In this document: positions 11,029 through 64,000 of the stretch, piece after piece | How the letters are laid out: each line of letters begins with the position of its first letter | Numbering within the stretch: position 1 is the first letter of the stretch | DNA from: Porticoccaceae bacterium | GTDB taxonomy: Bacteria; Pseudomonadota; Gammaproteobacteria; Pseudomonadales; Porticoccaceae | Reading direction: 5' to 3' | Length of the DNA stretch: 64,000 nucleotides | NCBI GenBank assembly: GCA_026005035.1 | Contig: BPKH01000001.1 | Coordinates: 269,610-333,609 of the forward strand | The notes under the pieces: generated by a model | What the model was told of the DNA's origin: nothing | Database searches by the model: none | What the model saw: the letters and a program-made list of their open reading frames with translations, nothing else | Program-made: the position numbers and the translations under genes

Positions 11029-12165
11029 TTGCGCCTCCGCTGGGCGGACGGGAGGGAAGCAGTGGCGGAGGCATCCCGGGGAGCGAGTGCGGCCCTCGAC
11101 CTTCGCGGCATCTGCCGCCGTTACGGCGACCAGGTGGTGCTCGACGGCGTCGATCTCGAGGTGCTCGAGGGGGAATTCTTCAGCCTGCTCGGGCCCTCGG
11201 GCTGCGGGAAGACCACGCTTTTGCGCATCATCGCCGGCTTGGAAGCGCCGGACGAGGGACGGGTGTTCCTCGCCGGCCGCGACATGACCCACACGCCGCC
11301 CCATCTCCGCCCGGTGAACACGGTCTTTCAGAGTTACGCCCTCTTTCCCCACCTCACCGTGGCGGGCAATGTGGCCTTCGGCCTGCGGATGCGCCGCCTG
11401 CCGAAGAGGGAAATCCGCGAGCGGGTCGACGCCGCCCTCGACCTGGTGGGACTTCGCGGCCTCGCCGAGCGGCGGCCGCACCAACTGTCCGGGGGGCAGC
11501 GCCAGCGGGTCGCCCTGGCTCGCGCCCTGGTGAACGAACCCCGGGTGCTCCTCCTCGACGAACCCCTCTCGGCCCTCGATCTGGCGCTGCGCCGGGAACT
11601 GCGTCTCGAACTGGTGCGCCTCCAGGAACGCCTCGGCCTCACCTGTCTGTTCGTGACCCACGACCAGGAGGAGGCCCTGGTCCTCTCCGACCGCTTGGCG
11701 GTCATGGAGCGGGGCCGGATCCGCCAGGTCGGCAGCCCGGAAGCGGTCTACGAACGCCCCATCAGCCCCTTCGTGGCCCGCTTCATCGGCGAAGCCAATC
11801 TGATCCCCGGGGAATGCCGGGGGGACGGGCGCGCCCTCACCCCTCTGGGAGAGCTGGAGTTCCCGGCCGGGGCCGCCCCGAAGTCGTCCGGCCCCCTCTG
11901 GCTTGCCATCCGCCCCGAAAAATTGCGCCTTTTCCGCACCGAGCCCGCGCAGCCCAATCGGGTCCAGGCGCGGGTCGAGGGGATCGTCTACACCGGCTCG
12001 GAAAACCGCTATCTGCTCGATGCCGCAGGGATCCGCCTGCTCGCGGAGACCCTCAACCACGACAGCGAAGAGCCCGGCCACGAGGAGTTCGCGGCCGGCG
12101 AGACGCTGTGGGTGGTGCTGCCGCCCGAGCGCCTGGTGGTGCTGGCGGATGAGCCGCCGGGCTGA
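11029..12165 (+). CDS. potA: spermidine/putrescine ABC transporter ATP-binding protein
   Basis: Walker A GPSGCGKTT, signature LSGGQRQRVALARAL, Walker B LLLDEP, TOBE-like C-terminus. Alternative start GTG 11062 follows GGGAGGGA. Confidence 0.85.
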   Translation: MRLRWADGREAVAEASRGASAALDLRGICRRYGDQVVLDGVDLEVLEGEFFSLLGPSGCGKTTLLRIIAGLEAPDEGRVFLAGRDMTHTPPHLRPVNTVFQSYALFPHLTVAGNVAFGLRMRRLPKREIRERVDAALDLVGLRGLAERRPHQLSGGQRQRVALARALVNEPRVLLLDEPLSALDLALRRELRLELVRLQERLGLTCLFVTHDQEEALVLSDRLAVMERGRIRQVGSPEAVYERPISPFVARFIGEANLIPGECRGDGRALTPLGELEFPAGAAPKSSGPLWLAIRPEKLRLFRTEPAQPNRVQARVEGIVYTGSENRYLLDAAGIRLLAETLNHDSEEPGHEEFAAGETLWVVLPPERLVVLADEPPG

Positions 12166-18828: not shown

Positions 18829-19650
18829 CTACTTGCGCAAGTCCAGCGGGCGAAACCGCAGGTAAACGGTGCGGAACTCCCGCTGGTAGACGGCCGGATC
18901 CAGTTCCTTGAGGCGGCTGAATTGCCCCACCTGCCACACCGCTCGCTCGGCGGACTGGTCGAAGGCGGCGTTGCCACTCGACTGGACCACCGCCACCGCG
19001 GTGACGCGACCGGCGGCTCCCAGCGTAATCTTCAGGACCACCTCCATGTCCCGAGTGGCGCTCGGCGGCCGACTCCAGTTGGCGGCGATCAGGCTTGCCA
19101 TGTAATCCACATAGGTGCCCACCAGGGCGGCCCTTTCCGCCTCCGCCCGCTGGGCCTCCTCCCGCGCCAGGGCCGCTTCGAGCTCCCGGCGGCGGGCCTC
19201 CTCCTCGGCACGACGGCGCTCCAGCTCCCGGCGGCGGGCCTCCTCCTCGGCACGACGGCGCTCGAGCTCCCGGCGGCGGGCCTCCTCCTCAGCGCGACGG
19301 CGCTCGAGCTCCCGGCGGCGGGCCTCCTCCTCGGCGCGCCGTCGCTCCAGCTCCCGGCGGCGGGCCTCCTCCTCGGCGCGACGGCGCTCCAGCTCGGGGG
19401 AGGGCGCCTGCGCCTGCGGCTTCGGCTCGCGCTTCGCCGCGGGGGGCGCGGGCGGCTGCGCCGGGGGTTCTCTCTGCAAGAGCTCCGCCTCCACGAACCG
19501 CGGCACGATCGCCTCCGGCGGGCGCTCCGCCGCGCCCCAGTGGCGAACGAGCAGGGCGAGGAGCAAGCCGTGGAGGAGGACGCTCGCGGCGAGCGCAATC
19601 AGATCGTCGCGCCATTCCCGAGCTGATGGCAAGCGGTCAGTCGCCCACAT
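18829..19650 (-). CDS. tolA: Tol-Pal system protein TolA
   Basis: TM anchor [19 protein letters not shown], charged helical domain II with 5 x [14 protein letters not shown], and a C-terminal TolA-III-like domain (..[16 protein letters not shown]...[10 protein letters not shown]..). Its start overlaps the tolR stop. Confidence 0.85.
19186..19395 (-). repeat. 5 tandem 42-bp (14-aa) in-frame repeats inside tolA
   Basis: [14 protein letters not shown] x5 covers aa 86-155 and is followed by a partial ELE. Copies differ only at synonymous positions (CTG/CTC, CGC/CGA/CGT/CGG, GCC/GCT). Confidence 0.9.
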
Positions 19651-21226: not shown

Positions 21227-22270
21227 TCAACGGGTTTCGCCGAGGAGGGAGATCTGGGCCGCGCTTCCCGCAGGCGCGGGCAGGCCGAAATGTTCGTAGG
21301 CCTGCCGCGTGGCGATGCGCCCCCGCGCGGTGCGCACCAGAAAGCCCTGCTGAATCAAGTAGGGCTCCACCACCTCTTCCAGGGTGCCGCGCTCCTCGCC
21401 GAGGGCGGCGGCCAGGCTGTCGATCCCCACCGGACCGCCGTCGAACTGCTCGATGATCAGCGCGAGCAGCCGCCGGTCCAGCTCGTCCAGGCCCGCGCGA
21501 TCCACCTTCAAGAGGTCCAACGCCTCGGCGGCCACCGCCGCCGAGATCCGCCCGTCGCCGCGCACCTCGGCGTAGTCGCGCACCCGCCGCAGCAGCCGAT
21601 TGGCGATGCGCGGCGTGCCCCGGGCGCGGCGCGCCACCTCCCGCGCACCGCCCTCGTCGATGGCGCTGCCGAGGATCCGCGCCGAGCGCAGCACGATGTG
21701 GGCCAGCTCCGCCACCGAATAAAATTCCAGCCGCTGGACGATGCCGAAGCGATCCCGAAGCGGCGAGGTGAGCAGGCCCGCCCGGGTGGTGGCGCCCACC
21801 AGGGTGAAGGGCGGCAGGTCCAGCTTGATGGAGCGCGCCGCCGGTCCCTCGCCGATCAGGATGTCGAGCTGGAAGTCCTCCATGGCGGGGTAGAGGATCT
21901 CCTCCACCGCCGGGCTCAAGCGGTGGATCTCGTCGATGAACAGGACGTCGCCCCGCTCGAGATTGGTGAGAATGGCGGCGAGATCCCCGGCGCGCTCCAG
22001 GACCGGCCCCGAGGTGGCCTTGAGGGAGACGCCGAGCTCGTTGGCGATGATGTGGGCGAGGGTGGTCTTGCCCAGTCCGGGCGGGCCGAACACCAGGGTG
22101 TGGTCCAGGGGCTCGCCCCGGGCCCGGGCGGCGTGGATGAAAATCTGCAGCTGCTCCCGGACCCCCTCCTGGCCCACGTAGTCGGCGAGGCGCAACGGCC
22201 GCACCGCGCGGTCGAACCGCTCTTCCTGGGCATCGGCCTCCGGGTGGACCAAGCGGTCGGTTTCGATCAC
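21227..22270 (-). CDS. ruvB: Holliday junction branch migration DNA helicase RuvB
   Basis: Walker [18 protein letters not shown]. The start GTG 22270 (VIETDRLV...) was chosen by similarity to the E. coli RuvB N-terminus. The ORF track gives TTG 22315. Confidence 0.9.
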
Positions 22271-22325
22271 GGACACCTCGCGGGGGTCCCGCAGCACGAG
22301 GCCATTGTAGAGCAAAAGGGGCCCC

Positions 22326-26518: not shown

Positions 26519-26674
26519 GGTTCGCTCCCACCTTGCCAGGGAGCGCCGCGGGCCCGGACGAGCGGGCGCGGCACCCCGCTTCGAGGGCGCGGATTCTACG
26601 CCAGAGGCGCGGCGCGCGCAAGGCGCCCGAATGCCCAGCCGGCGCGCACCGCGCGGGACCGGGAGCGATTCGCC

Positions 26675-26703
26675 TTGACAGCCCTCCGCCCCCTCCCTAG
26701 CAT
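26675..26703 (+). promoter_or_regulatory. sigma70-type promoter of ispB
   Basis: TTGACA (26675..26680), 17 nt, TAGCAT (26698..26703), 30 nt before ATG 26734. Confidence 0.55.
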
Positions 26704-26733
26704 CCGCCGCAACCCGCCGGATTCCCCCTGCCC

Positions 26734-27693
26734 ATGCTTCCCTTCCACCAGGTGGTGCGCGACGATTTCGAGGCGGTCAACCGCCTGATCCTCGCCGAAC
26801 TGCGCTCCGACGAGCCGCTGGTGGAACAGATCGGCCACTACATCGTCGACGCCGGGGGCAAGCGGCTGAGGCCGCTGGTGGTGCTGCTCGCCGCCCGCGC
26901 CCTGGGCTATCGAGGCGACCGCCACGTCGCGCTGGCGGCGGTGATCGAGTTCATCCACACCGCCACCCTCCTGCACGACGACGTGGTGGACACCTCGCAG
27001 CGCCGCCGCGGGCGGCCCACGGCCAACGCCCGCTTCGGCAACGCCCCGAGCGTCTTGGTGGGCGACTTTCTCTACTCCCGCGCCTTTCAGCTGCTGGTGT
27101 CCCTCGGCGACCTGGAAATCATGCGCATCCTCGCCGACACCACCAACGCCATCGCCGAGGGAGAGGTGGCGCAGCTGGCGCGGGCCGGTTGCGAAACTCC
27201 CGAGGCCGACGACTACTTTCGGGTGATCGACAAGAAGACGGCGCGGCTCTTCCGCGCCGCCGCCGAGGCCGCCGCGGTGCTCGCGGGCAGCGACCACTGC
27301 CGGCAACCACTCGCCCGCTACGGCCACCACCTGGGCATGGTGTTCCAGCTGGTGGACGACCTCCTCGACTACGAAGGCGATGCCGCCGCCCTGGGCAAGA
27401 ACCTCGGCGACGACCTCGCCGAGGGGAAGGCCACCCTGCCCCTCATCCACGTCCTGGAGACGGGCACCGCCGACCAGGTGGAACTGGTCCGCGGCGCGCT
27501 GCGCAACCGCTCGGCGGAGTGCTTCGCCGAGGTGATGGCGGCCATTCGCGCCACCGGCGCCCTGGAGCGGACCCGGGCGGTGGCCCGGCACCATCTGGAG
27601 GCGGCCACGGCGGCCCTGGCGCCCCTTCCCGCGGGCCGCGAAAGAGAAGCCCTGCGCGCGGTGGCGGAGTTCGCGTTCAGCCGCGACCACTGA
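26734..27693 (+). CDS. ispB: octaprenyl diphosphate synthase
   Basis: [12 protein letters not shown], first DDxxD in [15 protein letters not shown], second in [10 protein letters not shown]. Confidence 0.9.
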
Positions 27694-27840
27694 CCCCCAG
27701 CCATAAGGAACATTTATAAATCTAATGCCGCGCATCAGGAATAGAAATAACAAAAGGGGGGCCGTTGGCGATACATTCTGCCCCCTACCGGTCCCCGGCG
27801 CCGAACGCCGGCCGTCACCCCTCGAGGAGAGCGAACCACC

Positions 27841-29040
27841 GTGTTGATCGGCATTCCCAAAGAGACCAAACCGCGCGAGCACCGGGTGGCCATGACACCG
27901 GCCAACGTCCGCTTCTGGACCGAGAAGGGCGTCTCCTTCCTGGTGGAGGCGGGCGCGGGGAGCGCCGCCGGCCACCTGGACGCGGACTACCAGGAAGCGG
28001 GCGCGCGCATCGCCGCCAACCGCGCCGAAGTGTTCGGCCAGGCCGAGATCCTGCTCCAGGTGCAATCCTTCGGCGCCAATCAGGTCACCGCCGAACCGGA
28101 CCTCGAGCTGTTGCGACCGGGGCAGGTGGTGGCGGGGCTGATGGATCCCCTGGGCCACCCCGAGGTGGCCGCCCTGCTGGCCGAACGCGGGGTGACCGCC
28201 ATCGCCATGGAGCTCATCCCGCGGATCAGTCGCGCCCAGGCCATGGACGTGTTGTCCTCCATGGCCACCCTCGCCGGCTACAAGGGCGTGCTGCTGGGCG
28301 CCGTCGCCGCCAACCGGATCATGCCGTTGATGATGACCGCGGCGGGCACCCTGCAGCCCATGCGGGTGTTCGTCATGGGCGCCGGCGTGGCGGGACTCCA
28401 GGCTTGCGCCACCGCCAAGCGGCTCGGCGCGGTGGTGGAGGCCTACGACGTGCGGCCCGCCGCCCGCGAACAGATCCTGTCGGTGGGCGCCAAGCCGGTG
28501 GAGCTGCCCCTGGAGACCGACCAGGCCGAAGACAAGGGCGGCTACGCCAAGGCCCAGAGCGAAGAGTTCCTGCGCCGCCAGCGGGAGCTGATGAGCGAAG
28601 TGCTGGCCCGCCAGGACCTGGTGATCACCACCGCCTCGGTGCCCGGCGCCCGGGCGCCGGTCCTCATCACCGCGGAGATGGTGCGGGCCATGAAGCCCGG
28701 CTCGGTGATCGTCGATCTGGCGGCCGAGCGGGGCGGCAACTGCGAGCTCACCCGCCTCAACGAGACGGTGGTGGAGCACGGCGTGACCATTCTGGGGCCG
28801 GAAAACCCCGCCGCCACTATCCCCTACCACGCCAGCCAAATGTACGGCAAGAACATGGAGGTCTTGCTCTCCCACATTCTCGACGAATCCCTCCGGATCG
28901 CCCTCGACTTCGAGGACGAGATCATCCGCGAGATCGTCATCGCCCACGGCGGTGAAGTGCGCCACCCCCGGCTGCGCGCAGCGCTCGGCCTGCCGGAGCT
29001 CGCGCCGGCCGGCGACCGCCAAGAAGGAGGAGAAGCCTGA
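27841..29040 (+). CDS. pntAA: NAD(P) transhydrogenase subunit alpha part 1
   Basis: MLIGIPKETKPREHRVAMTP..., Rossmann VFVMGAGVAGLQA. GTG start at 27841. Confidence 0.9.
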   Translation: MLIGIPKETKPREHRVAMTPANVRFWTEKGVSFLVEAGAGSAAGHLDADYQEAGARIAANRAEVFGQAEILLQVQSFGANQVTAEPDLELLRPGQVVAGLMDPLGHPEVAALLAERGVTAIAMELIPRISRAQAMDVLSSMATLAGYKGVLLGAVAANRIMPLMMTAAGTLQPMRVFVMGAGVAGLQACATAKRLGAVVEAYDVRPAAREQILSVGAKPVELPLETDQAEDKGGYAKAQSEEFLRRQRELMSEVLARQDLVITTASVPGARAPVLITAEMVRAMKPGSVIVDLAAERGGNCELTRLNETVVEHGVTILGPENPAATIPYHASQMYGKNMEVLLSHILDESLRIALDFEDEIIREIVIAHGGEVRHPRLRAALGLPELAPAGDRQEGGEA

Positions 29041-37881: not shown

Positions 37882-37981
37882 GGCTTCTGCACCCCGCGGC
37901 CGATGGTAGCACGCACCGCTGACCTTGAAGCCGGTGCTCGCCTCGCGCATGATTGCTGGCTTTGCCCCGGTTTTTTATGCC

Positions 37982-40825
37982 ATGGATAAGATCGTCATCC
38001 GCGGCGCGCGCACCCACAATCTCCAGGGCATCGATCTGGAACTGCCGAGGGACCGGCTGATCGTCATCACCGGGCTTTCCGGATCGGGCAAGTCATCCCT
38101 GGCCTTCGACACCCTCTACGCCGAGGGGCAGCGCCGCTACGTCGAGTCCCTGTCGGCTTACGCCCGGCAGTTTCTGTCGATGATGGAAAAGCCCGACGTG
38201 GAGCACATCGAGGGGCTGTCGCCGGCCATCTCCATCGAGCAGAAGTCCACCTCCCACAACCCCCGCTCCACGGTGGGCACCATCACCGAGATCTACGACT
38301 ACCTGCGCCTCCTCTACGCCCGGGCGGGCGAGCCGCGCTGTCCCGACCACGACCTGCCCCTGGACGCCCAGACGGTGAGCCAAATGGTGGACCAGGTGCT
38401 CTCCCGTCCCGAGGGCAGCGCCTGGATGCTCCTCGCCCCGCTGGTGCGCGACCGCAAGGGGGAGCACCAGGCGGTGTTCGAGCAGCTGCGCGCCCAGGGG
38501 TTCGTGCGCGCCCGGGTGGATGGGCGCGTCTACGACCTGGACGAGGTCCCCCAACTGGACAAGCGCCGCAAGCACCGGATCGAGGCGGTGGTGGACCGCT
38601 TCCGGGTGCGCGCCGACCTGCGGCAGAGACTCGCCGAGTCCTTCGAGACCGCGCTCGCCCTCTCGGGGGGGCTCGCCGTGGTGGCGCCCCTGGAAGGAGG
38701 CGAAGAGACCATCTTTTCGGCGCGCTTCGCATGCCCCCTGTGCGATTACAGCATCGGGGAACTGGAACCGCGCCTCTTTTCCTTCAACAACCCGGCCGGC
38801 GCCTGCCCTCGCTGCGACGGCCTCGGCGTGGTGCAGTTTTTCGACGTGGCGCGGGTGGTGGCGCGCCCGGAGGCGTCCCTGGCGGAAGGGGCGATCCGCG
38901 GCTGGGACCGGCGCAACCCCTTCCTGTTCAACCTCATCTCCTCCCTGGCCGCCCACTACGGCTTCGACCTCGACACCCCCTTTCGCGAGCTCGACGAGGC
39001 AATCCAGCGGGTGATCCTGTTCGGCTCGGGGCAGGAGGAGATCGAGTTCCGCTACGCCAACGAGCGCGGCACCCTCTACCGGCGCCGCCACCCCTTCGAG
39101 GGGGTGATCCCCAACCTGGAGCGGCGCTGGCGGGAGTCGGCCTCGCCGGCGGTGCGCGAGGAGCTCGGCCGGCTGATCAGCACCCAGCCCTGCCCCGAGT
39201 GCGACGGCACCCGCCTCAACCGGGCGGCACGCCACGTCTTCGTGGACGGCCGCTCGCTGCCGGAGATCACCGCCCTGGCGGTGGGCGAGCTGTGCGACTA
39301 CTACGCCGGCCTCACCCTGCCTGGCCGGCGGGGGGAGATCGCCGCCAAGATCCTCAAAGAGATCCGCGCCCGGCTGCGCTTCCTGGTGGACGTCGGCCTC
39401 GCCTATCTGACCCTGGACCGCAGCGCCGAGACCCTCTCCGGGGGCGAGGCCCAGCGGATCCGCTTGGCGAGCCAGATCGGCGCCGGCCTGGTGGGGGTGA
39501 TGTACATCCTCGACGAGCCCTCCATCGGGCTCCACCAGCGGGACAACGCCCGCCTCCTCGACACCCTGCTGCGGCTGCGCGACCTGGGCAACACGGTGAT
39601 CGTGGTCGAGCACGACGAGGACGCCATCCGGGCCGCCGACCACATCGTCGACATGGGACCGGGGGCGGGGGTGCACGGCGGCCGGGTGGTGGCCCAGGGG
39701 ACGGTGGCGGAGATCGTCGCCTGCGAGGAATCCCTGACCGGCCAGTATCTCTCCGGCCGCCGCGAGATCCCCCTGCCCAGCCGCCGCCACGCCGCCGCCG
39801 GCGGGCGCCACCTGTGGATTCGCGGCGCCCGCGGCAACAACCTCCAGGGGATCGACGTGGCCATCCCGGTGGGCACCTTCACCTGCATCACCGGGGTGTC
39901 CGGCTCGGGCAAGTCGACCCTGATCAACGAGACCCTCTATCCCATCGCCGCCGCCGTCCTCAACGGCGCGCGCAATCTGCGCCCTGCCCCCTGTGACGGC
40001 GTCGAGGGCCTGGAGCACTTCGACAAGTGCGTGGACATCGATCAAAGTCCCATCGGCCGCACGCCCCGCTCCAATCCCGCCACCTACACCGGCCTTTTCA
40101 CCCCCATCCGGGAACTGTTCGCCGCCACGCCGGAGGCCCGCGCCCGGGGCTACAAGCCGGGGCGTTTTTCCTTCAACGTGCGCGGGGGGCGCTGCGAAGC
40201 CTGCCAGGGGGACGGGGTCACCAAGGTGGAGATGCACTTTCTGCCCGATCTGTACGTCACCTGCGACGTCTGCCAGGGCCGCCGCTACAACCGCGAGACG
40301 CTGGAGATCCGCTACAAAGGCAAAAACATCCACGAGGTCCTAGAGATGACCGTGGAGGAAGCCCGCGACTTCTTCGCCGCCGTGCCGGCGGTGGCGAACC
40401 GCCTCCAGACCCTGATGGACGTCGGTTTGGGCTACGTGCGCCTGGGCCAGTCGGCCACCACCCTCTCCGGCGGCGAAGCCCAGCGGGTCAAGCTGGCGCG
40501 GGAACTGGCCAAGCGGGACACCGGTCGGACGCTCTACATCCTCGACGAGCCCACCACCGGGTTGCATTTCCACGACATCCGCCAGCTTTTGGAGGTGCTC
40601 CACCGCCTGCGGGACCACGGCAATACCGTGGTGGTGATCGAGCACAACCTGGACGTGATCAAGACCGCCGACTGGATCGTCGACCTGGGTCCGGAAGGCG
40701 GCGCCGGCGGCGGCCGCGTGGTGGCGGCGGGGACCCCCGAGGAGGTTGCCGCCTGTGCCGACTCCCACACCGGCCGCTTTCTGGCGCCGCTGCTCGCCCG
40801 CCACCGCGAGCGCCGCCGCGCCTAG
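37982..40825 (+). CDS. uvrA: excinuclease ABC subunit A
   Basis: ATG 37982 lies inside ORF 37925..40825. [44 protein letters not shown]. Second ATPase module [10 protein letters not shown]. Zn-finger CPxC pairs. Confidence 0.95.
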
Positions 40826-49175: not shown

Positions 49176-51122
49176 ATGGCGCGCATTCCCCAGTCCTTCA
49201 TCGACGACTTGCTGGCGCGGGTGGACCTCGTCGAGCTGATCGGCGAGCGGGTGGAGCTGCGCAAAGCGGGGCGCAGCTACAAGGGGCTTTGCCCCTTTCA
49301 CGCCGAGCGCACCCCCTCCTTCACCGTCAGCCCGGACAAGGGGCTGTACCACTGTTTCGGCTGCGGTGCCGGAGGCAACGCCATCGGCTTTTTGATGGAA
49401 CACGATCGGCTGGGATTCGTCGAAGCGGTGGAGCAGCTGGCCCGCCGGCTGGGCATCGAAGTGCCCCGAGAGGGGGAGAGCGAGGAAAGCGCGTCCAGCC
49501 GGCGGCGGCGCGCCCTCTACGACCTCCTCGGCCGCGCCGCCGACTACTACCGCGAACAGCTCGCCGCCCACCCCGCCGCGGCGCGCGCCCGCCGCTACCT
49601 GCAAAAGCGAGGCATCGCACCGGAGGTGGCCGCCCGCTTCGGCATCGGCTACGCGCCGCCCGGCTGGGACAATCTGGTGCGCGCCCTGGGGGGCGGCGCC
49701 GAGGCGCGCGCCCTCCTGGTGGAGGCGGGCCTGGCGGCGCACCGGGAGCGCGAACCGGAGCGGATCTACGACCGCTTCCGGGACCGCCTGATCTTCCCCA
49801 TCCGGGACCCGCGGGGGCGCACCCTGGGCTTCGGCGCCCGCCTGCACGAGGAGCAAAGCGGTAACCGCGGCCCAAAATACCTCAACTCGCCCGAAACCCC
49901 CCTCTTCCACAAGGGGCGGGAACTGTACGGCCTCTACGAGGCCCTGCGCGCGGAGCGCGAGCCCGCGTCCCTGGTGGTGGTGGAAGGCTACCTGGACGTG
50001 GTCTCCCTGGCCCAGCACGGGGTGGCCAACGCCGTCGCCACCCTGGGCACCGCGGTGACCCGGGATCATCTGGAAAAGCTGTTTCGCACAACGAGCGAAC
50101 TCGTCTTTTGCTTCGACGGCGACGCCGCCGGCCGCGCCGCCGCCCGCCGCGCCCTGGAGACCTGTCTACCGCTTCTCGAAGACGGGCGCACGGTGCGCTT
50201 CCTGCTGCTTCCCCAGGGAGAAGATCCCGATTCCCTGGTGCGCGCCCGGGGCGGCGAGCACTTTCGCGCCCTGGTGCGGGAGGCCCCCTCCCTCTCCGAG
50301 TTCCTGTTCGCCCAACTGGGCGCGGAGGAAGCCCATACGCCGGACCAGCTGGCCCGCCTGTGCCGCACCGCCCTGCCCCTCCTCGCGCGCATTCCGGGCG
50401 CGGTGCTGCGGCGTCTGCTGCGCCGGGCGCTGGCCGAGCGGCTGGGCTTGGCGGAGGAGGAACTGGAGGCCTTGGCCGAGCCCCCGCCACGCGTCGCCGC
50501 TCCCGCCCCGGCTCCACCCCCGGCGCCGGTTGCCCGCCGTCCGCCACCCGGGGCCGAGCGGTCGCCCGAGCGCAGCGTCCGGCCGTCCGTGCGCCTCACC
50601 CCGGCGCGGCGGGCGGTGCTGTTGCTCCTCGCCAACCCCGCCCTCCATCGGGAAATCCCCGACCCGCAGCGACTGCGCGCCCTCGACGATCCCCACGCCG
50701 CGACCCTCGCCGACCTGGTGCAGATCCTCGCCCGCCACCCCCAGTTCTCCCTCAACCAGCTGCTCGGCCACTGGCGCGGTCTGCACGGCGCGCAGCGGGC
50801 CCGGGAACTGGAGGAGCTGGTGGAGGCGGGGTTGGTGGCGCCGCGCGCCGACCGGGACGATCGGGCGGAACTGCGGGACGTGGTGGCCCGGCTGTCCAGC
50901 CGCCTGGAAGAATCGCGCCACCCCCGGGAGCGGCTCGAGGCGCTCCTCGCCCGGGGCGAGCTCGACTTGGCGGAGCGCAAGCTCGTCCAGGTGCTGTACG
51001 CGCGCCTTCCCCCCGCCGACCGCGAGGCGTTGCGCGAGCCGGTGCAAGCCGTCCTGGCGCGGGGCGCCCGCCGCGCCCCGAGCACCGCTCCCCGCGGACG
51101 ACCCGAGCAAAAAGGGCGGTAA
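49176..51122 (+). CDS. dnaG: DNA primase
   Basis: MARIPQSFIDDLLARVDLVELIG...; zinc finger CPFHAERTPSFTVSPDKGLYHCFGCGAGG; TOPRIM VVVEGYLDV. Confidence 0.95.
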   Translation: MARIPQSFIDDLLARVDLVELIGERVELRKAGRSYKGLCPFHAERTPSFTVSPDKGLYHCFGCGAGGNAIGFLMEHDRLGFVEAVEQLARRLGIEVPREGESEESASSRRRRALYDLLGRAADYYREQLAAHPAAARARRYLQKRGIAPEVAARFGIGYAPPGWDNLVRALGGGAEARALLVEAGLAAHREREPERIYDRFRDRLIFPIRDPRGRTLGFGARLHEEQSGNRGPKYLNSPETPLFHKGRELYGLYEALRAEREPASLVVVEGYLDVVSLAQHGVANAVATLGTAVTRDHLEKLFRTTSELVFCFDGDAAGRAAARRALETCLPLLEDGRTVRFLLLPQGEDPDSLVRARGGEHFRALVREAPSLSEFLFAQLGAEEAHTPDQLARLCRTALPLLARIPGAVLRRLLRRALAERLGLAEEELEALAEPPPRVAAPAPAPPPAPVARRPPPGAERSPERSVRPSVRLTPARRAVLLLLANPALHREIPDPQRLRALDDPHAATLADLVQILARHPQFSLNQLLGHWRGLHGAQRARELEELVEAGLVAPRADRDDRAELRDVVARLSSRLEESRHPRERLEALLARGELDLAERKLVQVLYARLPPADREALREPVQAVLARGARRAPSTAPRGRPEQKGR

Positions 51123-51253
51123 ATCGGCGCGTCCTGTCCTAGGCTTGTCGTGGCCTTGAAAAACCAGGACCCGCACCGATAACCAAAGGGCGCTATAATT
51201 GCGCGTTTCCCATGTCTCTCTGCAGACCCAATCCATCCGACCGCGGAACAGCC

Positions 51254-53065
<1,812 letters not shown>

Positions 53066-57789: not shown

Positions 57790-58965
57790 ATGGCGCTGGT
57801 CAAAATTCCGGCCATGCAACTCAAGCCCGGCATGTTCGTCGCCGAGCTCGACCGCCCTTGGCTCGAGACTCCCTTCGCCCTGCAGGGGTTCGTGGTGCGG
57901 GATGACGAAGACGTGCTCTACATCGCCCAGTACGTGGAGTACGTCTACGTCGACCCCGCCTACTCGGGCGGCGCCGTCTTTCTGCCCACCCGCGACCGCC
58001 AGCGGGCGGTGGAGCTCAAGCGGCGCGACATCAAGGCCGACTTCCAACAGGCGCGCGTCGACTACGACAGCGCCCAGATGGCGCTGGAACAGGTGTTCCA
58101 CTCCCTCGAACAGGGGGGGCGGTTGCCCGTCAAGCAGGTGAAGAGCGCGGTGCGGCCGATCATCGATGACGTCTTCCGCAACCGCGACGCCATGGCGGCC
58201 CTGGCGCGGCTGAAGAAGATCGGCGACTACCGCTACCACCACGGGCTGGCCATGGCGGTCTGGGCGGCCCTGCTCGGCAAACACATCGGCCTTTCCCGCG
58301 ACGAGCTGGAAAAGCTGGTGCTCGGCTGCGCCCTGTGCGACGTGGGCATGACCCGCCTGCCGCCGGAGCTGGTGAACAAGGCAGGGGGATACGACGCTCA
58401 GGAGCGGGCGCGCATGCACGAGCATCCACGCCTGGGCGTCGAACTGCTCGCGGAGACGGGGGATGTCGATCCCGAAGTGCTGGCGGTGGTCGAACACCAC
58501 CACGAGCGCCATGACGGCTCCGGGTATCCCCGCGGCCTCGCCGGCACAGCCATTCCCCTCTTCGCCCGCATCGCCGGCCTGGTGGACAGCTTCGACGCCA
58601 TGATTTCGCCGCGACCCCACGCCGCACCGCGCACTTCCTTCGCCGCCATGCAGGAGATCCTGGATGCCAAGGGGCAGCTCTTCCAGGACGAGCTCGTCGA
58701 GCAGTTCCTCCAGGCGGTCGGCCTCTTTCCCATCGGCGCCCTGGTGGAGCTCAACACCGGCGAAGTGGGTGTGGTGGTGCGCCAGAACCCCCACCGGCGC
58801 CTCAAGCCGGAGATCGTGGTGCTCCTCGGCAGCGACAAGCGCCCGCGGGAAAAACCCCTGCTGCTCGACCTGGCGCGGCAGAGCCTGGCCGAGAAGGTGT
58901 GGATCGAGCGAGAGCTGCCCCAGGGGAGCTACGGCCTCGACGGCGAGGAATTCTTCTCCTCGTGA
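57790..58965 (+). CDS. HD-GYP-type phosphodiesterase-like protein with DUF3391-like N-terminus; HD dyad replaced by CD
   Basis: N-terminus MALVKIPAMQLKPGMFVAELDRPW. Domain HHGLAMAVW...GCALCDVGMTRLP (canonical ..LLHDIGK..)...HEHP...HHHERHDGSGYPRGL. Confidence 0.75.
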   Translation: MALVKIPAMQLKPGMFVAELDRPWLETPFALQGFVVRDDEDVLYIAQYVEYVYVDPAYSGGAVFLPTRDRQRAVELKRRDIKADFQQARVDYDSAQMALEQVFHSLEQGGRLPVKQVKSAVRPIIDDVFRNRDAMAALARLKKIGDYRYHHGLAMAVWAALLGKHIGLSRDELEKLVLGCALCDVGMTRLPPELVNKAGGYDAQERARMHEHPRLGVELLAETGDVDPEVLAVVEHHHERHDGSGYPRGLAGTAIPLFARIAGLVDSFDAMISPRPHAAPRTSFAAMQEILDAKGQLFQDELVEQFLQAVGLFPIGALVELNTGEVGVVVRQNPHRRLKPEIVVLLGSDKRPREKPLLLDLARQSLAEKVWIERELPQGSYGLDGEEFFSS

Positions 58966-60131
58966 CCGCTGCCAAACGGGCGTTGGGCATCGTCGAGCTC
59001 GCCCTCGGGGAGGAGGGGCGGGACCGCGCCGCCGAGGTGCTGCGGGCCCTGTTCGCCGAGCGATTGTCCGCCTGGCTGGGCCCACGCGGGCAGCAGCGGC
59101 CGGCGGGGGCCGACAAGGTGCTGGTGGTGCTCCCCGAGGTGGCGGACGAGGCGGCCCTCGAGGCGCGCCTCGAGTCCCTCTTCGCCGCCCTGGAAGGCCC
59201 CATCGCCTTGGCCGGCCGCCGCGGTGCAGCCATCTACGCCGGTTTCACCTTCCACGACCCGGGCGGCAACCTGCACGGCGCCGTGCGGGAAGCCGGCCAG
59301 GCCCTGGCGCGGGCCAAGGCGCTCCGGATCGGCTGGCTGCTCTACGGCCGCGAGCCGGAACTGGCGGCCGACGCCCCCGGCCGGCTTCAAGACCTCGAGG
59401 AGGCACTGAGCCTGGGAGAATTCCAACTCCACTTCCAGGCGCGCCTCCACCCCGTCTACCGCTCCCTTGCCGGCGCCGAGGCCTTTTTGCGCTGGCACAC
59501 CCGCCACCGCAAGGTGCTCGCGCCCGAGCAATTCCTCCCCGCGGAGAGCCACCATCCCGTGGTGGAGGCCCTCTACGCCTGGGCGCTCAAGGCGGCCGTG
59601 GCCCGCCTCGCCCGCTGGCGGCAGCGGCTCCACCTCCAGCTCGCCCTGCCGGCCCGCCTCCTGGCCCGCCCGGGACTGGCCCTGGCGCTGGCCGACGCCT
59701 GTGCCCTGCACGGCGTCGAACCCGGCCGCATCCTGCTCGCCTTTCCCCAGGACGCCCTGCTGTCCGGCCCGGGCGCGGCGGAGGCGGCGGCGAGCGGCGC
59801 GGGCCTCGTCGCCGTCAATCGAGGCGAGAGTCTCGCCTCGGCCCTGGCGGGGATCCGCGCCCTGCCGGAACAGGGCGGCATCCTGCGGGAATTCAAGCTG
59901 GCGCCCCCGGAACCGGCCATCCTGGTGCGCGACCTGGCCTACCGGCAGATGCTGCGCCGCCTGGTGGAGGAGGCCCACCGCCGGCGCCTGAAGGTGGCCT
60001 TTGCCGGCGCCGACCACGAGAAGATCGCCGAGGTGGCGCGGGAGATCGGCTGCGACCTGGTCCAGGGGCGCTTCTACGACATTGTCCTGCCCCTCCAGGA
60101 GTTTGAGGCCCGCCACCAGTTGCGGCCCTAG
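58962..60131 (+). CDS. degenerate GGDEF-EAL domain protein (probably non-catalytic)
   Basis: GTG 58962 overlaps the HD-GYP stop (GTGA). GADKVLVVL stands in place of GGDEFxxLL. The EAL region reads EFQLHFQ...GAEAFLRW...VQGRFY but lacks DDFGTG (VNRGES) and EGVE (GADHE). Confidence 0.65.
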   Translation: MTAAKRALGIVELALGEEGRDRAAEVLRALFAERLSAWLGPRGQQRPAGADKVLVVLPEVADEAALEARLESLFAALEGPIALAGRRGAAIYAGFTFHDPGGNLHGAVREAGQALARAKALRIGWLLYGREPELAADAPGRLQDLEEALSLGEFQLHFQARLHPVYRSLAGAEAFLRWHTRHRKVLAPEQFLPAESHHPVVEALYAWALKAAVARLARWRQRLHLQLALPARLLARPGLALALADACALHGVEPGRILLAFPQDALLSGPGAAEAAASGAGLVAVNRGESLASALAGIRALPEQGGILREFKLAPPEPAILVRDLAYRQMLRRLVEEAHRRRLKVAFAGADHEKIAEVAREIGCDLVQGRFYDIVLPLQEFEARHQLRP

Positions 60132-61021
60132 CCGGCGGCTTCCTTCCAGACCGGAGGCCCCGGCTCTCGGTAGCGGTCGAGGGGGCTCGGCCGCCCGTCG
60201 GAGCCGTAGTAGCCGCCGCTAGCAATCCCCGGTGCGGTGAGCAGGTAGAGGATCACCTCGGCGCCCTGGGCTGGCGTCTTCATGCCCGCTTCGGCGGGGC
60301 TGCGCCCGCCCAGGAAGCGGCGTCCCAGCTCGGTGTCCACGAAACCCGGCGTGCAGGCCGCCACTCGCCACTCGGGGTGCTCGCGGGCCAGGATGGCGGT
60401 GAGGGCGTTGGCGAGCGCCTTGGAGAACCCGTACGCCCCGGGCCAGGGAAGACCCCGGGCGCGCAGCGCCTCCGGTCCGCCCCGCAGGCAGTCGGTAACC
60501 AGCGCCTCGAATTCGGGCCGCGCCAGGGCGGGATCGGTGAAAAAGCGCCGCCAGCGGGGCGGGCAGCGGGCCACGTAGTTGGGACCGGCGGCCGAGCTGA
60601 CGTTGACCACGCGCCCACCCGGGCCGAGGAACCGGCCCAGGCGGCGACACACCCGATCGATTCCCCGCACGTTGACCTCGAGCACCGCCTGCAGGTTTCC
60701 GTCGGCCACGCCGGCGTTGTTGACGATCCCCCACAGGGGTGGTCCGCCGGCCCGCTCCAGTAAGGAAGCCGCAGCCGCCACCGAATCCTCGTCGGCGACG
60801 TCGAGGGGCAGCACGGCGAGGCGCCCTTCGGCCTCCGGCCGCGCTGCGAGCAGTTGGCCGCGCACCGCCTCGCCCCGCTGTGCGTCCCGCGCGCCGAGCC
60901 AAACCCAAACCTCGGGCAGGCGCGCTGTGAGCCCTTCCACCACCGCCCGGCCGATGCCCCGGGTGGCACCGGTCACCACCACCGCCCGGGCGGCGCGGTC
61001 AGAAGCTGTCGGTGCCGGCAT
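60128..61021 (-). CDS. SDR-family oxidoreductase (carbonyl-reductase-like)
   Basis: VVVTGATRGIGRAV, NNAG, YGFSKALANAL. Its start overlaps the pilU-like stop by 23 nt. Confidence 0.75.
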   Translation of the reverse strand: MPAPTASDRAARAVVVTGATRGIGRAVVEGLTARLPEVWVWLGARDAQRGEAVRGQLLAARPEAEGRLAVLPLDVADEDSVAAAASLLERAGGPPLWGIVNNAGVADGNLQAVLEVNVRGIDRVCRRLGRFLGPGGRVVNVSSAAGPNYVARCPPRWRRFFTDPALARPEFEALVTDCLRGGPEALRARGLPWPGAYGFSKALANALTAILAREHPEWRVAACTPGFVDTELGRRFLGGRSPAEAGMKTPAQGAEVILYLLTAPGIASGGYYGSDGRPSPLDRYREPGPPVWKEAAG

Positions 61022-62207
61022 CGGTGCGCCGCCCCTCCTCGATGCGCTCGATCTCGAACTCGCCGAAGGCGCCCCCCGGCCGGCCGGCCCGCGGGCTCTT
61101 GAAGCGGATGTACTGCTGCACCTGGGTGCGGGAGGTGGCGTGGTCGCAGGCCACCTCGGCGCTGATCACCCCGCGGTCGTAGAGCTCGCACAGGCACTGG
61201 TCGAAGGTCTGCATGCCGTAGTTGCGCCCCTCCTCCACGGCGGCGCGGATCGCGTCCCAATCCCGTCGGGCGATCAGCTCGGCGATGCGGGTGGTGTTGA
61301 CCAGAATCTCCAGCGCCGCGGTCTTGCCCCCCGACTCGGTGGGCACCAGCCGCTGGCAGATGATCGCCCGCAGGTTCTGGGCGAGCCGCTTGGCCTCCTG
61401 CTCCTCCGTCTCACGGTCGAAGAAGGAGAGCATGCGCTCGAGCGATGAGGCCGCGGTGTTGGCGTGCAGGGTCGACAGGCACAGGTGGCCGGTGTTGGCG
61501 AAGCGCAGGGCGTACTCCATGCTCACCGCGTCGCGGATCTCCCCCATCAGAATCACGTCGGGGGCCTCCCGCATGGCCGCGCGCATGCCGCTCTCGAAGC
61601 TCAGAGTGTCGGTGCCCACCTCCCGCTGGGCCACCAGCGACTTTTTGTGGGAGTGCAGGTACTCGATGGGGTCTTCCAGGGTAATGATGTTTCCGGGCAG
61701 GTTGGCGTTGCGGTGGTCGATCATCGCCGCGAGGGTGGTGGACTTGCCGGAGCCGGTCGCCCCGGAGACCACGATGAGGCCGTTTTTCCCCTCCACCAGG
61801 CTCTTGAGGATCGGCGGCAGGCCGAGGCCGTCGATGGTGGGCACCTCGCCGGAGACGTAGCGCATGACGATGGAGACGTCGCCGCGCTGGCGGAAGGCGT
61901 TGCCGCGAAAGCGCCCGAGACCCCCTACGGAAAAGGAAAAGTCCACCTCGCCGGCGGCCTCGAACTCGGCCATCTTGCGCTCGCTCAGCATCGCCGCGAG
62001 CAGCGCCGCCGTCTCGCCGGGGCGCAACGCCCTGCCCACCGCGGCAAAGCCGAAGGGCCCCTTGAGGGTGGGGCGGGCGCCGGTGTACAAGAAGAGGTCG
62101 GAGGCGCGCTTTTCCACCACCAGGCCGAGCAGGGGGGCGAGCAACGCCTCCGGGCCGCGCTCCTCGCCCGCCGCCTCGCCCCCGCTCACGGTCTGCTCTT
62201 CGTCCAT
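60999..62207 (-). CDS. pilU: PilT/PilU-family hexameric ATPase (PilU-like)
   Basis: VEKRASDLFLYTGARPTLK, Walker A GATGSGKSTT, EDPIEY, MGEIRD, GHLCLSTLHAN, GMQTFDQCLCELYDRGVIS. It lacks the PilT AIRNLIRE motif. GGAGG RBS. Confidence 0.7.
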   Translation of the reverse strand: MDEEQTVSGGEAAGEERGPEALLAPLLGLVVEKRASDLFLYTGARPTLKGPFGFAAVGRALRPGETAALLAAMLSERKMAEFEAAGEVDFSFSVGGLGRFRGNAFRQRGDVSIVMRYVSGEVPTIDGLGLPPILKSLVEGKNGLIVVSGATGSGKSTTLAAMIDHRNANLPGNIITLEDPIEYLHSHKKSLVAQREVGTDTLSFESGMRAAMREAPDVILMGEIRDAVSMEYALRFANTGHLCLSTLHANTAASSLERMLSFFDRETEEQEAKRLAQNLRAIICQRLVPTESGGKTAALEILVNTTRIAELIARRDWDAIRAAVEEGRNYGMQTFDQCLCELYDRGVISAEVACDHATSRTQVQQYIRFKSPRAGRPGGAFGEFEIERIEEGRRTDAGTDSF

Positions 62208-62240: not shown

Positions 62241-63770
62241 CTACCACGGGGCATCCCCCTCGGCCTCCACCGCCCGCACCTCGAATTCGGCCAGGCGGGC
62301 GTTGCAGGCCTCGAGCTCGTCGGCGGACAGCTCCCGGCCCCGGGCCGCTTCGGGAAGGTCGAGGCAGAGGTGGAAGTAGCGCGCCCCGCGGCCGACCACG
62401 GCGGCGGCGAGGTGCACCGGCAGGATGCCCACCACCCAGTCGCCCGCCTCCACCTCGGCCGGGTCCAGGTGGGCGACCACTCGATCTGGCGCCAAGCCCC
62501 GGCGGCGCAGCCACTCGACCGCTCCGGGATGGCGGGTCACCAGGATCCGCCGCCCCCGGGGCGCAGGCTGCGCCACCCCCTGCTCGAGGCGTTCGGCGAA
62601 ATGGTCGAGGAGTGACCGGACCGCCTTTTGCAACGCGTCTGCCTTGCGGGGTTGGCGGTTGTAGCCGGCGTGGAGCAGGTCATTGCGGGCGCTGCTCCAG
62701 GGATTGTGGCCGCGGTGGGCGCGGCGCTCGGCGGCGTTCCAGGCGGCTTCGGCGCGCCGCCGCGCCTGGGGATCGAAGGCGGCGCCGGGCGTGGCGCCCG
62801 CCCGTTCCGCGTACAGGCTCACGAGCCCCTCGCGAGCGACCGCCGCCGCCTCGAGGAGCCGCCTTTGTCGGTACTGGCGGCGGGCGAGGGCGAGCAGAGC
62901 GGCAAGGCCGTCGCGGTCCGCCAAATCCTCTGCCACGAGATCCGCGAGGCCCTCGGCGACCCGCTCCAGGAGGGGAGCGGCCACCGGCAGGTGGCCGGAC
63001 AACTCCTCCCCGAACTGCTCCAGAGCGTCGAGCAGTCGCCGTGCGCTGCCCGGTCGGCCGGCCCCCTCGCCGGCGATCAGCTGCTGGACGCGCAGCGCCT
63101 GGTAGTCGGCGACATACTCGGACAATGCCCTTACCACCGGGCGGGTGCGGGGCCAGCGGTCGCCCGCTTGTCGCCGGGCGAGGCCCGCCCGCAGGGTGCG
63201 ATCCGCTTCCTCCAACAAGCGGACGAGGGGATCGCCCCGCCCGCCTTCGACGAACAGGGTCGCGGCAGCCGCCCAGTCGACCAGTTCCAGCAGCCAGGAG
63301 AGATCCCAGATGGGCGAAATCCGCGGTTCCTCGGGCAAAAACCGCCCGTAGAGGATGCGCATCGGCCGTCCCTGGGCGAGGCCCAGTTGGCGCAAATAGC
63401 TCAGGCAGGCGCAGGCGAGGAGCGGCTGGGTGCGAAAGCCGTGGGTGACATCCACCCAGAGCTCGCCGCAGGGTTCCGAGAAGACCGCAAAGAGCCTCTC
63501 GAACGCCCTCACGAGCTCTTCCCGATTCCGCCCGGTGGGGATTTCTCGGAGCGCCACCGGGCGCGGCGCCAGCGCCGCCGCCACCACTTGACCGTGGACC
63601 GCGAGGGCCTCTGCGGACGCCACCAGCGTCACCCGGTCCACGGCGGCGAGCTCGGCGATGGCCAGAGCCACATGGGCCGTTTCCACCACCGCGCCTGCCT
63701 CGTCCAGCCGGTAACCGGTGACCTGGTAGCAACCGGTGCCGAGAAAGCTCACCAGATGGCGGTCGCTCAT
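62241..63770 (-). CDS. CARF (DxTHG / TM1812-type) - HEPN (RNDLLH) - Csx16-like fusion protein
   Basis: ATG 63770 overlaps the nfo stop (ATGA). [20 protein letters not shown]; VDVTHGFR (63432..63455); [14 protein letters not shown]; Rx4H motif RNDLLH (62670..62687). C-terminal [64 protein letters not shown] (62280..62552). Confidence 0.7.
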
Positions 63771-64000
63771 CGCGAGCGCACCTGGGTGCGGCGCGCCGCG
63801 CGGGCCGCGGCCAGGGACTTGAGCCAGGCGATCTCCTCGGGCCAACGCGCGGGATCGACGGTCTCGAGGATCATCGGCAGGCCGTCGAAGCGCGGGTCGC
63901 CCATCAGGTATTCGAACACCGTGCAGCCGAGCTCGCCGGCGTGGAGGCTGTGGTGGCGGTCCACCCGACTGCCGAAGCGCGCCTTGCTGCCATTGAGGTG
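63767..64000 (-). CDS. nfo: deoxyribonuclease IV (endonuclease IV), 3' part only; continues beyond the window
   Basis: ORF 63767..63964 stays open to nt 64000. ...[50 protein letters not shown] is the Nfo C-terminus. Confidence 0.8.

Follow-up and report, generated by a model that had tools for sequence, protein, structure and literature searches.

We describe a gene for a CARF-HEPN-Csx16 fusion protein, csx1-csx16 (csx for short), within a 64-kb stretch of a Porticoccaceae metagenome-assembled genome (positions 269,610 to 333,609 of contig BPKH01000001.1, assembly GCA_026005035.1), which we call the window and in whose own numbering all coordinates are given. The gene occupies 62241..63770 on the minus strand and encodes 509 amino acids (aa) followed by a stop codon, and its product is identical (100%) to GIX29852.1 (KatS3mg124_0324). 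When the sequence was re-read, the open reading frame (ORF), its motif positions and its 4-nucleotide (nt) overlap with the upstream gene were all as described in an earlier note on this DNA. In the alignment, M1 pairs with M1 of all nine full-length homologues, which identifies the ATG at 63770 as the true start. The protein matches the PADLOC hidden Markov model (HMM) PDLC01842, "CARF2--CARF_HEPN_CSX16", from end to end (residues 5-501 against profile positions 2-477 of 478, E=4.8e-125, 416 bits), which places it in the CARF2 CARF-HEPN-Csx16 family. As judged from its sequence, 62241..63770 is predicted to encode a Csx1-family ancillary effector of type III CRISPR systems that is both intact and self-limiting, and the gene is a divergent addition to an already known family, found in an atypical location.

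The N-terminal module (approximately aa 1-195; 63186..63770, minus strand) is a CARF sensor domain with a Rossmann-like alpha/beta architecture, recognized by TIGR02549, TIGR02221, a PDB profile match and an AlphaFold2 model. The TIGR02549 (DxTHG) profile scores 29.3 bits against a cut-off of 21, in line with a DxTHG-type CARF, whereas the TIGR02221 cas_TM1812 equivalog model gives 69.4 bits against a cut-off of 76.25 (E=4.3e-19) and covers profile positions 107-218 only. By its sequence, the protein is related to this equivalog but, just below the cut-off, is not a formal member; of the TM1812/DxTHG assignment made in the earlier note, the DxTHG half holds and the TM1812 half narrowly misses formal membership. 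The family sequence profile also matched the CARF domain of Csx1-Crn2 in the PDB (8y75/8y6z, E=1e-20). In the family alignment, the DxTHG motif is D107-V-T109-H110-G111 (63438..63452, minus strand; VDVTHGFR at aa 106-113), and D107, T109, H110, G111 and R113 are invariant across all 10 members.

The sensor is followed by an all-helical region with helix-turn-helix (HTH) and HEPN parts (approximately aa 196-405; 62556..63185, minus strand), which is the effector region as delineated by PADLOC PDLC01032, Foldseek and AlphaFold2. PDLC01032, a profile for Csx1/Csm6 proteins with CARF and HEPN domains, matches residues 6-388 with E=1.7e-50. The R-x4-H catalytic motif, R362-N-D-L-L-H367 (RNDLLH, aa 362-367; 62670..62687, minus strand), was placed by the family alignment and lies inside the modeled helical region; R362, N363 and D364 do not vary within the family, and 9/10 members have H367. 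The previously suggested Rx4H HEPN effector is thus borne out by a Csx1-type helical domain with a family-invariant R-N-D-x-x-H.

The C-terminal module (aa 410-498; 62277..62543, minus strand) is a Csx16 (Cas_VVA1548) domain and putative ring nuclease. It was predicted as such in the earlier note, and both curated profiles agree: PF09652 scores 119.2 bits against a Pfam cut-off of 25 (E=8.6e-35), and TIGR02620 scores 101.6 bits against an NCBIfam cut-off of 46.35 (E=2e-29). Within the family, the motifs R413-H414-P-G416-A-V-E-W420 and R477-G-R-E-L481 are conserved. The same note had called Csx16 a proposed ring nuclease, which understates the case: biochemical work has established Csx16 as a ring nuclease specific for cyclic tetra-adenylate (cA4), and it is only with cA4 effectors that ring nucleases co-occur (PMC12409355).

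These assignments agree with the predicted fold. An AlphaFold2 model built from ten family members (predicted local distance difference test, 87.3; predicted template-modeling score, 0.71) consists of an alpha/beta domain at residues 1-176 (strands and helices at 4-176), a helical domain at 180-397 and a small alpha/beta domain at 408-496. In a Foldseek search of the PDB, the top match was Marinitoga Csx1-Crn2 (8y7g/8y6z; E=2e-18, template-modeling score ~0.5), with further matches to SisCsx1 (6qzt, E=1.3e-12), to T. thermophilus Csm6 and 8jbb/5fsh (E ~1e-8 to 1e-7), and to 8y7f, a CARF-truncated Csx1-Crn2 that comprises HEPN-Crn2 only (E=2e-6). The modeled fold is therefore similar to solved Csx1/Csm6 structures, and a chain that combines sensor, effector and off-switch, as first proposed from the sequence, is consistent with Csx1-Crn2 as the best structural match. 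An absence of CARF, HEPN and Csx16 profile matches, or a fold without a Rossmann-like CARF domain, had been named beforehand as speaking against the proposal; the profiles and the AlphaFold2 and Foldseek results gave neither outcome.

The CARF-HEPN-Csx16 architecture is already known, as its own PADLOC HMM (PDLC01842) attests, and the suggestion that it might be undescribed can be set aside; a 2021 review (PMC8284326) attributes the fusion of Csx16 to Csx1 to Makarova et al. 2020. A word-indexed search returned nine full-length homologues, 36-44% identical in the family alignment and 36-43% identical by BLASTP, which have all invariant motifs in common. When 1.84 billion cluster representatives (50% identity) were searched exhaustively with HMMER, approximately 32 further full-length three-module representatives emerged, along with hundreds more Csx1-like proteins that lack the Csx16 module. 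The csx protein is a singleton lineage within this family, its closest relative being at most 44% identical. Four other proteins of ~500-540 aa (P0011-P0014) also carry a C-terminal Csx16 module, 47-60% identical to the window copy in 4/4 cases, and in three of these (P0012-P0014) there is a Card1-type nuclease domain (PF09002). From this domain make-up, the Csx16 off-switch seems to have been shuffled among different cA4 effectors.

Genomic context could be read for six homologues, and all of them (6/6) are found in type III-B cmr operons, with 5/6 directly after cmr6. All six lie within or adjoining a cas10-containing type III locus, our definition of a type III ancillary gene by locus (e.g., within 6 kb, as in PMC12409355). 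The loci of P0004, P0007 and P0010 read cmr1-cas10-cmr3-cmr4-cmr5-cmr6-[csx], that of P0006 reads cmr2-cmr3-...-cmr6-cas6-[csx]-cas2-cas1, and that of P0002 reads cmr5-...-RAMP-[csx]-212-aa gene-Card1-cas2-cas1. In the P0003 locus, the upstream fragment is 74% identical to the cmr6 of L091, and a 304-aa homologue of cas6 follows downstream. In four homologue loci (L091, L093, L095 and L010), the start of csx and the stop of cmr6 share 4 nt. This consistent III-B context links the function of the family to cyclic oligoadenylate (cOA) made by Cas10.

Several other features of the III-B loci deserve mention. Directly downstream of csx1-csx16, a number of them have a small gene (169-212 aa) that lacks a Pfam match (L091 8552-9061; L010 2128-2754; L095 6407-6946; L006 3761-4399). 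The L091, L010 and L095 copies are homologous (28-53% identity), and the L006 copy is instead weakly similar to the CARF portion of the neighboring Card1. This small gene, which has no counterpart in the 64-kb window, may be an uncharacterized accessory gene. L093, the P0007 locus, opens with a reverse transcriptase-Cas1 fusion (PF00078 + PF01867; 1-2043), after which come cas2 and cas6. The Cas10/Cmr2 proteins of the effector-carrying III-B loci are short, ~630-680 aa with Cmr2_N and palm2 only (L091 1886-3784, L093 4682-6592 and the top Cas10-profile matches), and that of L002 is longer (1024 aa).

The domain order of the csx protein is that of Csx1-Crn2. In Csx1-Crn2, the HEPN RNase is turned on when cA4 occupies the CARF domain, and the response is limited in time because the fused ring nuclease vies for cA4 and degrades it (PMC7293037). 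Binding of cA4 remodels the CARF, HTH and HEPN domains of Csx1-Crn2 so that two R-x4-6-H motifs make one composite site (PMC11317161). On the strength of this shared order, a cA4-activated, self-limiting RNase is the most likely mechanism for the csx protein. By analogy, a dimeric N-terminal DxTHG-type CARF would bind cA4 and thereby switch on the HEPN RNase, with the R362-x4-H367 motifs of two subunits forming a composite active site. Cleavage of RNA would be non-specific, cA4-activated and self-limiting, as the fused C-terminal Csx16 would cleave cA4 and so limit the time for which the RNase is on. The gene would have moved from its usual place behind cmr6 in a type III-B operon to a string of housekeeping genes, and a Cas10 encoded outside the window would supply cA4 in trans. 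With modest confidence, we lean towards this reading as a whole, namely that csx encodes a functional, self-limiting, cA4-dependent RNase that was relocated from a III-B operon and is served in trans by a Cas10 elsewhere.

The immediate neighbors of csx are not cas genes. Upstream lies the 3' end of nfo (deoxyribonuclease IV; 63767..64000, minus strand), which extends past the window edge; the 76-aa fragment matches NF002199 (E=1.1e-22, profile positions 217-280 of 282) and TIGR00587 (E=8.9e-16), in both cases at the C-terminal end. The two genes share an ATGA (63767..63770, minus strand; read from the sequence), in which the nfo stop TGA (63769-63767) overlaps the csx ATG (63770-63768), and this is the same kind of junction as the cmr6/csx overlap of the four homologue loci. 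The translational coupling to nfo claimed earlier is a reading of this overlap, which is itself as reported. Downstream, a gene for a PilT/PilU-family ATPase (60999..62207, minus strand) starts 33 nt past the csx stop, its ATG preceded by a GGAGG within that spacer; it scores 393.8 bits with TIGR01420 against a cut-off of 319.1 and also matches PF00437 (T2SSE). Its end overlaps by 23 nt a short-chain dehydrogenase (SDR) gene (60128..61021, minus strand; PF00106 adh_short, E=3.8e-23). The pilU-like ATPase and overlapping SDR described in the earlier note are therefore both present. No promoter or terminator was predicted between nfo, csx and pilT/U, and csx, which may be co-transcribed with nfo, now lies in a tight run of same-strand genes, nfo-csx-pilT/U-SDR, surrounded by housekeeping genes.

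The PilT/PilU ATPase at 60999-62207 has no pilT partner or other pilus gene adjoining it, and its N-terminal 20-35 residues are unmatched in orthologues. On the strand opposite to csx and two genes distant from it, the gene for an HD-GYP protein (DUF3391 + HD_5; 57790-58962, plus strand) precedes one whose product combines a sub-threshold GGDEF match with an EAL domain (58899-60128, plus strand); given the start codons used here, these ORFs share 64 nt. The pair looks like one for turnover of cyclic di-GMP (c-di-GMP). As a candidate source of the csx ligand, the GGDEF protein was rejected, its GGDEF being degenerate and below threshold (22 bits), paired with EAL and of the ordinary c-di-GMP type.

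This setting raises the question of whether csx might have been repurposed, independently of CRISPR, as an nfo/pilT-linked stress or DNA-uptake module that answers to a non-Cas10 signal or serves mainly as a cA4 scavenger. Possible signals would be cOA from another cyclase, oligoadenylate, RNA ends with 2',3'-cyclic phosphate or phage-derived nucleotides. The arrangement itself invites the idea, with csx co-directional with nfo across a 4-nt overlap, 33 nt from pilT/U, and with no terminator predicted among the three genes. There is also precedent for CARF-associated proteins that act outside their usual role: an orphan Csx15 of P. fluorescens (PfCsx15) is a cA4 sponge (PMC13148439), RtcR-like CARF domains have been proposed as sensors of RNA with cyclic-phosphate ends, and, according to a citation in PMC12830947, Csx1 CARF reportedly binds linear tetra-adenylate tails. 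Set against this is our comparison of 80 PilT/U loci, obtained from a search of genome contigs in which the best orthologues were 65-71% identical: nfo, csx, SDR and seven other window neighbors were all absent within 10 kb of these orthologues. Thus, the comparison in relatives that had been suggested at the outset recovered the nfo-csx-pilU-SDR order in none of the available PilT/U relatives, and 0/10 neighboring genes are syntenic near the pilT/U orthologues. Because the nearest PilT/U genomes are too distant for synteny, the same comparison permits no inference about an insertion (an empty versus an occupied site). Repurposing is also at odds with the lack of a nearby cyclase, given that the neighboring GGDEF is degenerate, with the type III-B linkage of all other family members whose context could be read, and with the retained cA4 ring-nuclease module, which points to the canonical ligand. 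We therefore regard it as quite unlikely. Similarly doubtful is its fullest version, in which the genome holds no type III system and an intact Csx1-Csx16 has been selected in an nfo-csx-pilT/U operon as a CRISPR-independent, self-resetting RNase, triggered by cA4 or an oligoadenylate-like molecule from a non-Cas10 source or an invader and possibly linked to DNA damage or uptake.

The composition of csx differs little from that of its surroundings, roughly as the earlier note had judged by eye. Its G+C content (GC) is 72.8% versus 70.9% for the window. At third codon positions (GC3), it is 0.861 against a mean of 0.910 +/- 0.027 (z=-1.8), and the synonymous-codon fit has z=-1.9; these values fall in the low tail, yet inside the range of three other window genes. 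The GC profile runs through the region without a step, and csx has no flanking repeats, insertion scars or adjacent tRNA. A fresh horizontal island was accordingly rejected as unsupported, given the mild deviation (z ~-1.9) and the lack of a GC step, repeats, scars or adjacent tRNA. Because the DNA of the homologue loci is 60-68% GC, composition neither discriminates nor dates a transfer. The sequence comes from a metagenome-assembled genome, and this singleton protein is known from one contig only, which leaves room for an assembly or binning artefact, i.e., a chimeric join that placed a foreign CRISPR-accessory gene between host genes. We consider this highly improbable, as both junctions are exact gene boundaries (the ATGA upstream and the 33-nt spacer with GGAGG downstream), GC is continuous, codon usage is in the host range and the contig is 686 kb long. 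Host-like GC and codon usage, tight packing without scars and the lack of a predicted promoter or terminator between the genes thus speak for a gene that has long resided at this site and is well integrated, as opposed to a recent island or a product of chimeric assembly.

Several results weigh against a functional RNase served by a distant Cas10. The window extends 62 kb on the downstream side of csx, whereas on the upstream side it includes only the 3' end of nfo, and within it Tandem Repeats Finder and Rfam detected no CRISPR array. No Cas or CD-NTase model matched any of the 124 six-frame window ORFs at E<=1e-5 in PADLOC, and in a tblastn search of the window with 33 Cas/Cmr proteins from the homologous loci, the best match had E=0.003 over 41 aa. 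Beyond the window, a Cas10/Cmr2 profile built from four homologue loci had no KatS3mg124 protein among the best 120 of its 2,013 matches in the protein collection, a test of low power. When a profile was made of residues 200-404, the HEPN region by itself had no significant Pfam or PDB sequence match, its only matches being chance-level ones to TPR, kinesin and FlhA. Finally, in a leave-one-out comparison, the csx protein keeps 78/90 columns that are invariant in the other nine members (87%), the lowest share in the family, with the other members keeping 92-100%. The HEPN call is kept because the full-length PADLOC profiles, the fold and the R362-N-D-L-L-H367 motif support it. At the invariant positions that were lost, most of the changes are conservative (T>S, I>V, F>L), and the catalytic motifs are unaffected. 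The low retention may reflect relaxed constraint or simply a deep branch; we read the csx protein, as far as the alignment indicates, as probably a deep, somewhat faster-evolving branch and not a pseudogene. The empty array, PADLOC and tblastn searches agree with the first impression that no CRISPR-Cas system is in view, and the label "orphan" used in the earlier note is apt for nfo and the 62 kb to the left of csx, its scope being limited to that stretch.

The same results bear on the possibility that csx is a stranded relic, whose III-B operon was lost or never transferred, leaving an effector with no source of cOA that is silent or slowly decaying. A model for such a fate is VC1899 of V. 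cholerae, an orphan that is probably degenerate and has been described as "cast adrift" (PMC7969007). Besides the low share of family-invariant residues, the lack of a cas gene in the window and the weak test for a Cas10 from this metagenome-assembled genome, this explanation would account for the position of csx outside a cmr operon, a situation met in no other family member (6/6 relatives with readable context lie inside one), and it has published precedents in orphan CARF proteins (PMC7969007, PMC13148439). It fits poorly with the state of the gene. The 509-codon ORF is intact and keeps every catalytic and ligand motif, unlike the degenerate ligand site of VC1899; its codon usage is largely ameliorated, which implies a long undisrupted residence and so argues for selection; and it is tightly packed in an operon-like string. 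A relic is in our view rather unlikely, though a serious candidate, and we continue to favor the functional, trans-served RNase.

No other defense gene accompanies csx. Its surroundings include dnaG, rpoD, tRNA-Met and genes for an acyl-CoA dehydrogenase, a zinc alcohol dehydrogenase, a beta-CASP RNase, the HD-GYP and degenerate GGDEF-EAL proteins, SDR, PilT/U and nfo, and farther left are uvrA, ruvB, a TolA-like gene and Pfam matches to RuvC, TolB-type PD40 repeats, transhydrogenase and others. A defense island was rejected, as each other PADLOC match was traced to a housekeeping gene. These single-gene matches, csx apart, are false alarms: RpoD (51212-53062, plus strand) was matched as MzaA (1e-77), DnaG (49176-51119, plus strand) as RT_UG29 (4e-51) and RTasDnaG-like, UvrA (37925-40822, plus strand) as mad3 (3e-100) and mad8, an ABC ATPase (11029-12162, plus strand) as mad3 and AriA, and RuvB (21230-22315, minus strand) as IetA, and the P-loop of PilT/U was likewise the source of a defense-model match. 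As all of these are housekeeping genes, csx is the sole defense-type gene in the 64 kb.

Two further ORFs in the window have unusual sequence features. The TolA-like ORF (18832-19650, minus strand), adjoining tolB- and ruvB-type genes, contains a 42-nt tandem repeat at 19152-19395 (5.8 copies, 91% matches) that encodes a 14-aa unit approximately six times. At 26599-29022, an 808-aa minus-strand ORF has a higher GC at first codon positions (0.89) than at third positions (0.75), which suggests that the real gene or genes are encoded on the opposite strand; no PADLOC model matched this ORF or its plus-strand alternatives (26734-27690 and 27841-29037).

The gene extends a small catalogued family of predicted self-limiting, cA4-dependent RNases by a divergent member (at most 44% identity), and it documents a family member outside a cmr operon, in a core-genome operon. 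If the host carries a distant type III locus, csx would be a routine effector encoded in trans, and it would counsel caution for pipelines that search only a few kb around cas10. Should the genome lack a cOA synthase, csx would instead be a good test case for intact orphan CARF effectors, unlike the degenerate VC1899.

When compared to known systems, the closest parallel is Marinitoga Csx1-Crn2 (8y6z/8y7g), the best structural match, which follows the same logic and order, with a CARF domain leading into an HTH/HEPN RNase and a C-terminal ring nuclease. The two differ in the off-switch, which is Csx16 (PF09652) here and Crn2 (DUF1874) there, and overall identity is ~14-15%. Stand-alone Csx16 (Cas_VVA1548; PMC12409355) is a separate protein of ~100 aa, whereas the window copy, a C-terminal 90 aa that scores above the same curated cut-offs, is fused to its effector and is by sequence a putative ring nuclease. 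The CARF2 CARF-HEPN-Csx16 fusions have the same three modules at full length, and csx departs from them in its location, with nfo and pilT/U as neighbors instead of the III-B position behind cmr6. Encoding away from type III loci is itself familiar: approximately 25% of csx15 genes are orphans (PMC12409355), and VC1899 and PfCsx15 are both found away from such loci, as csx likewise is within the 64-kb window. In VC1899, however, the ligand pocket is degenerate and the residual RNase is unregulated, whereas the csx protein keeps all of its sensor, nuclease and ring-nuclease motifs.

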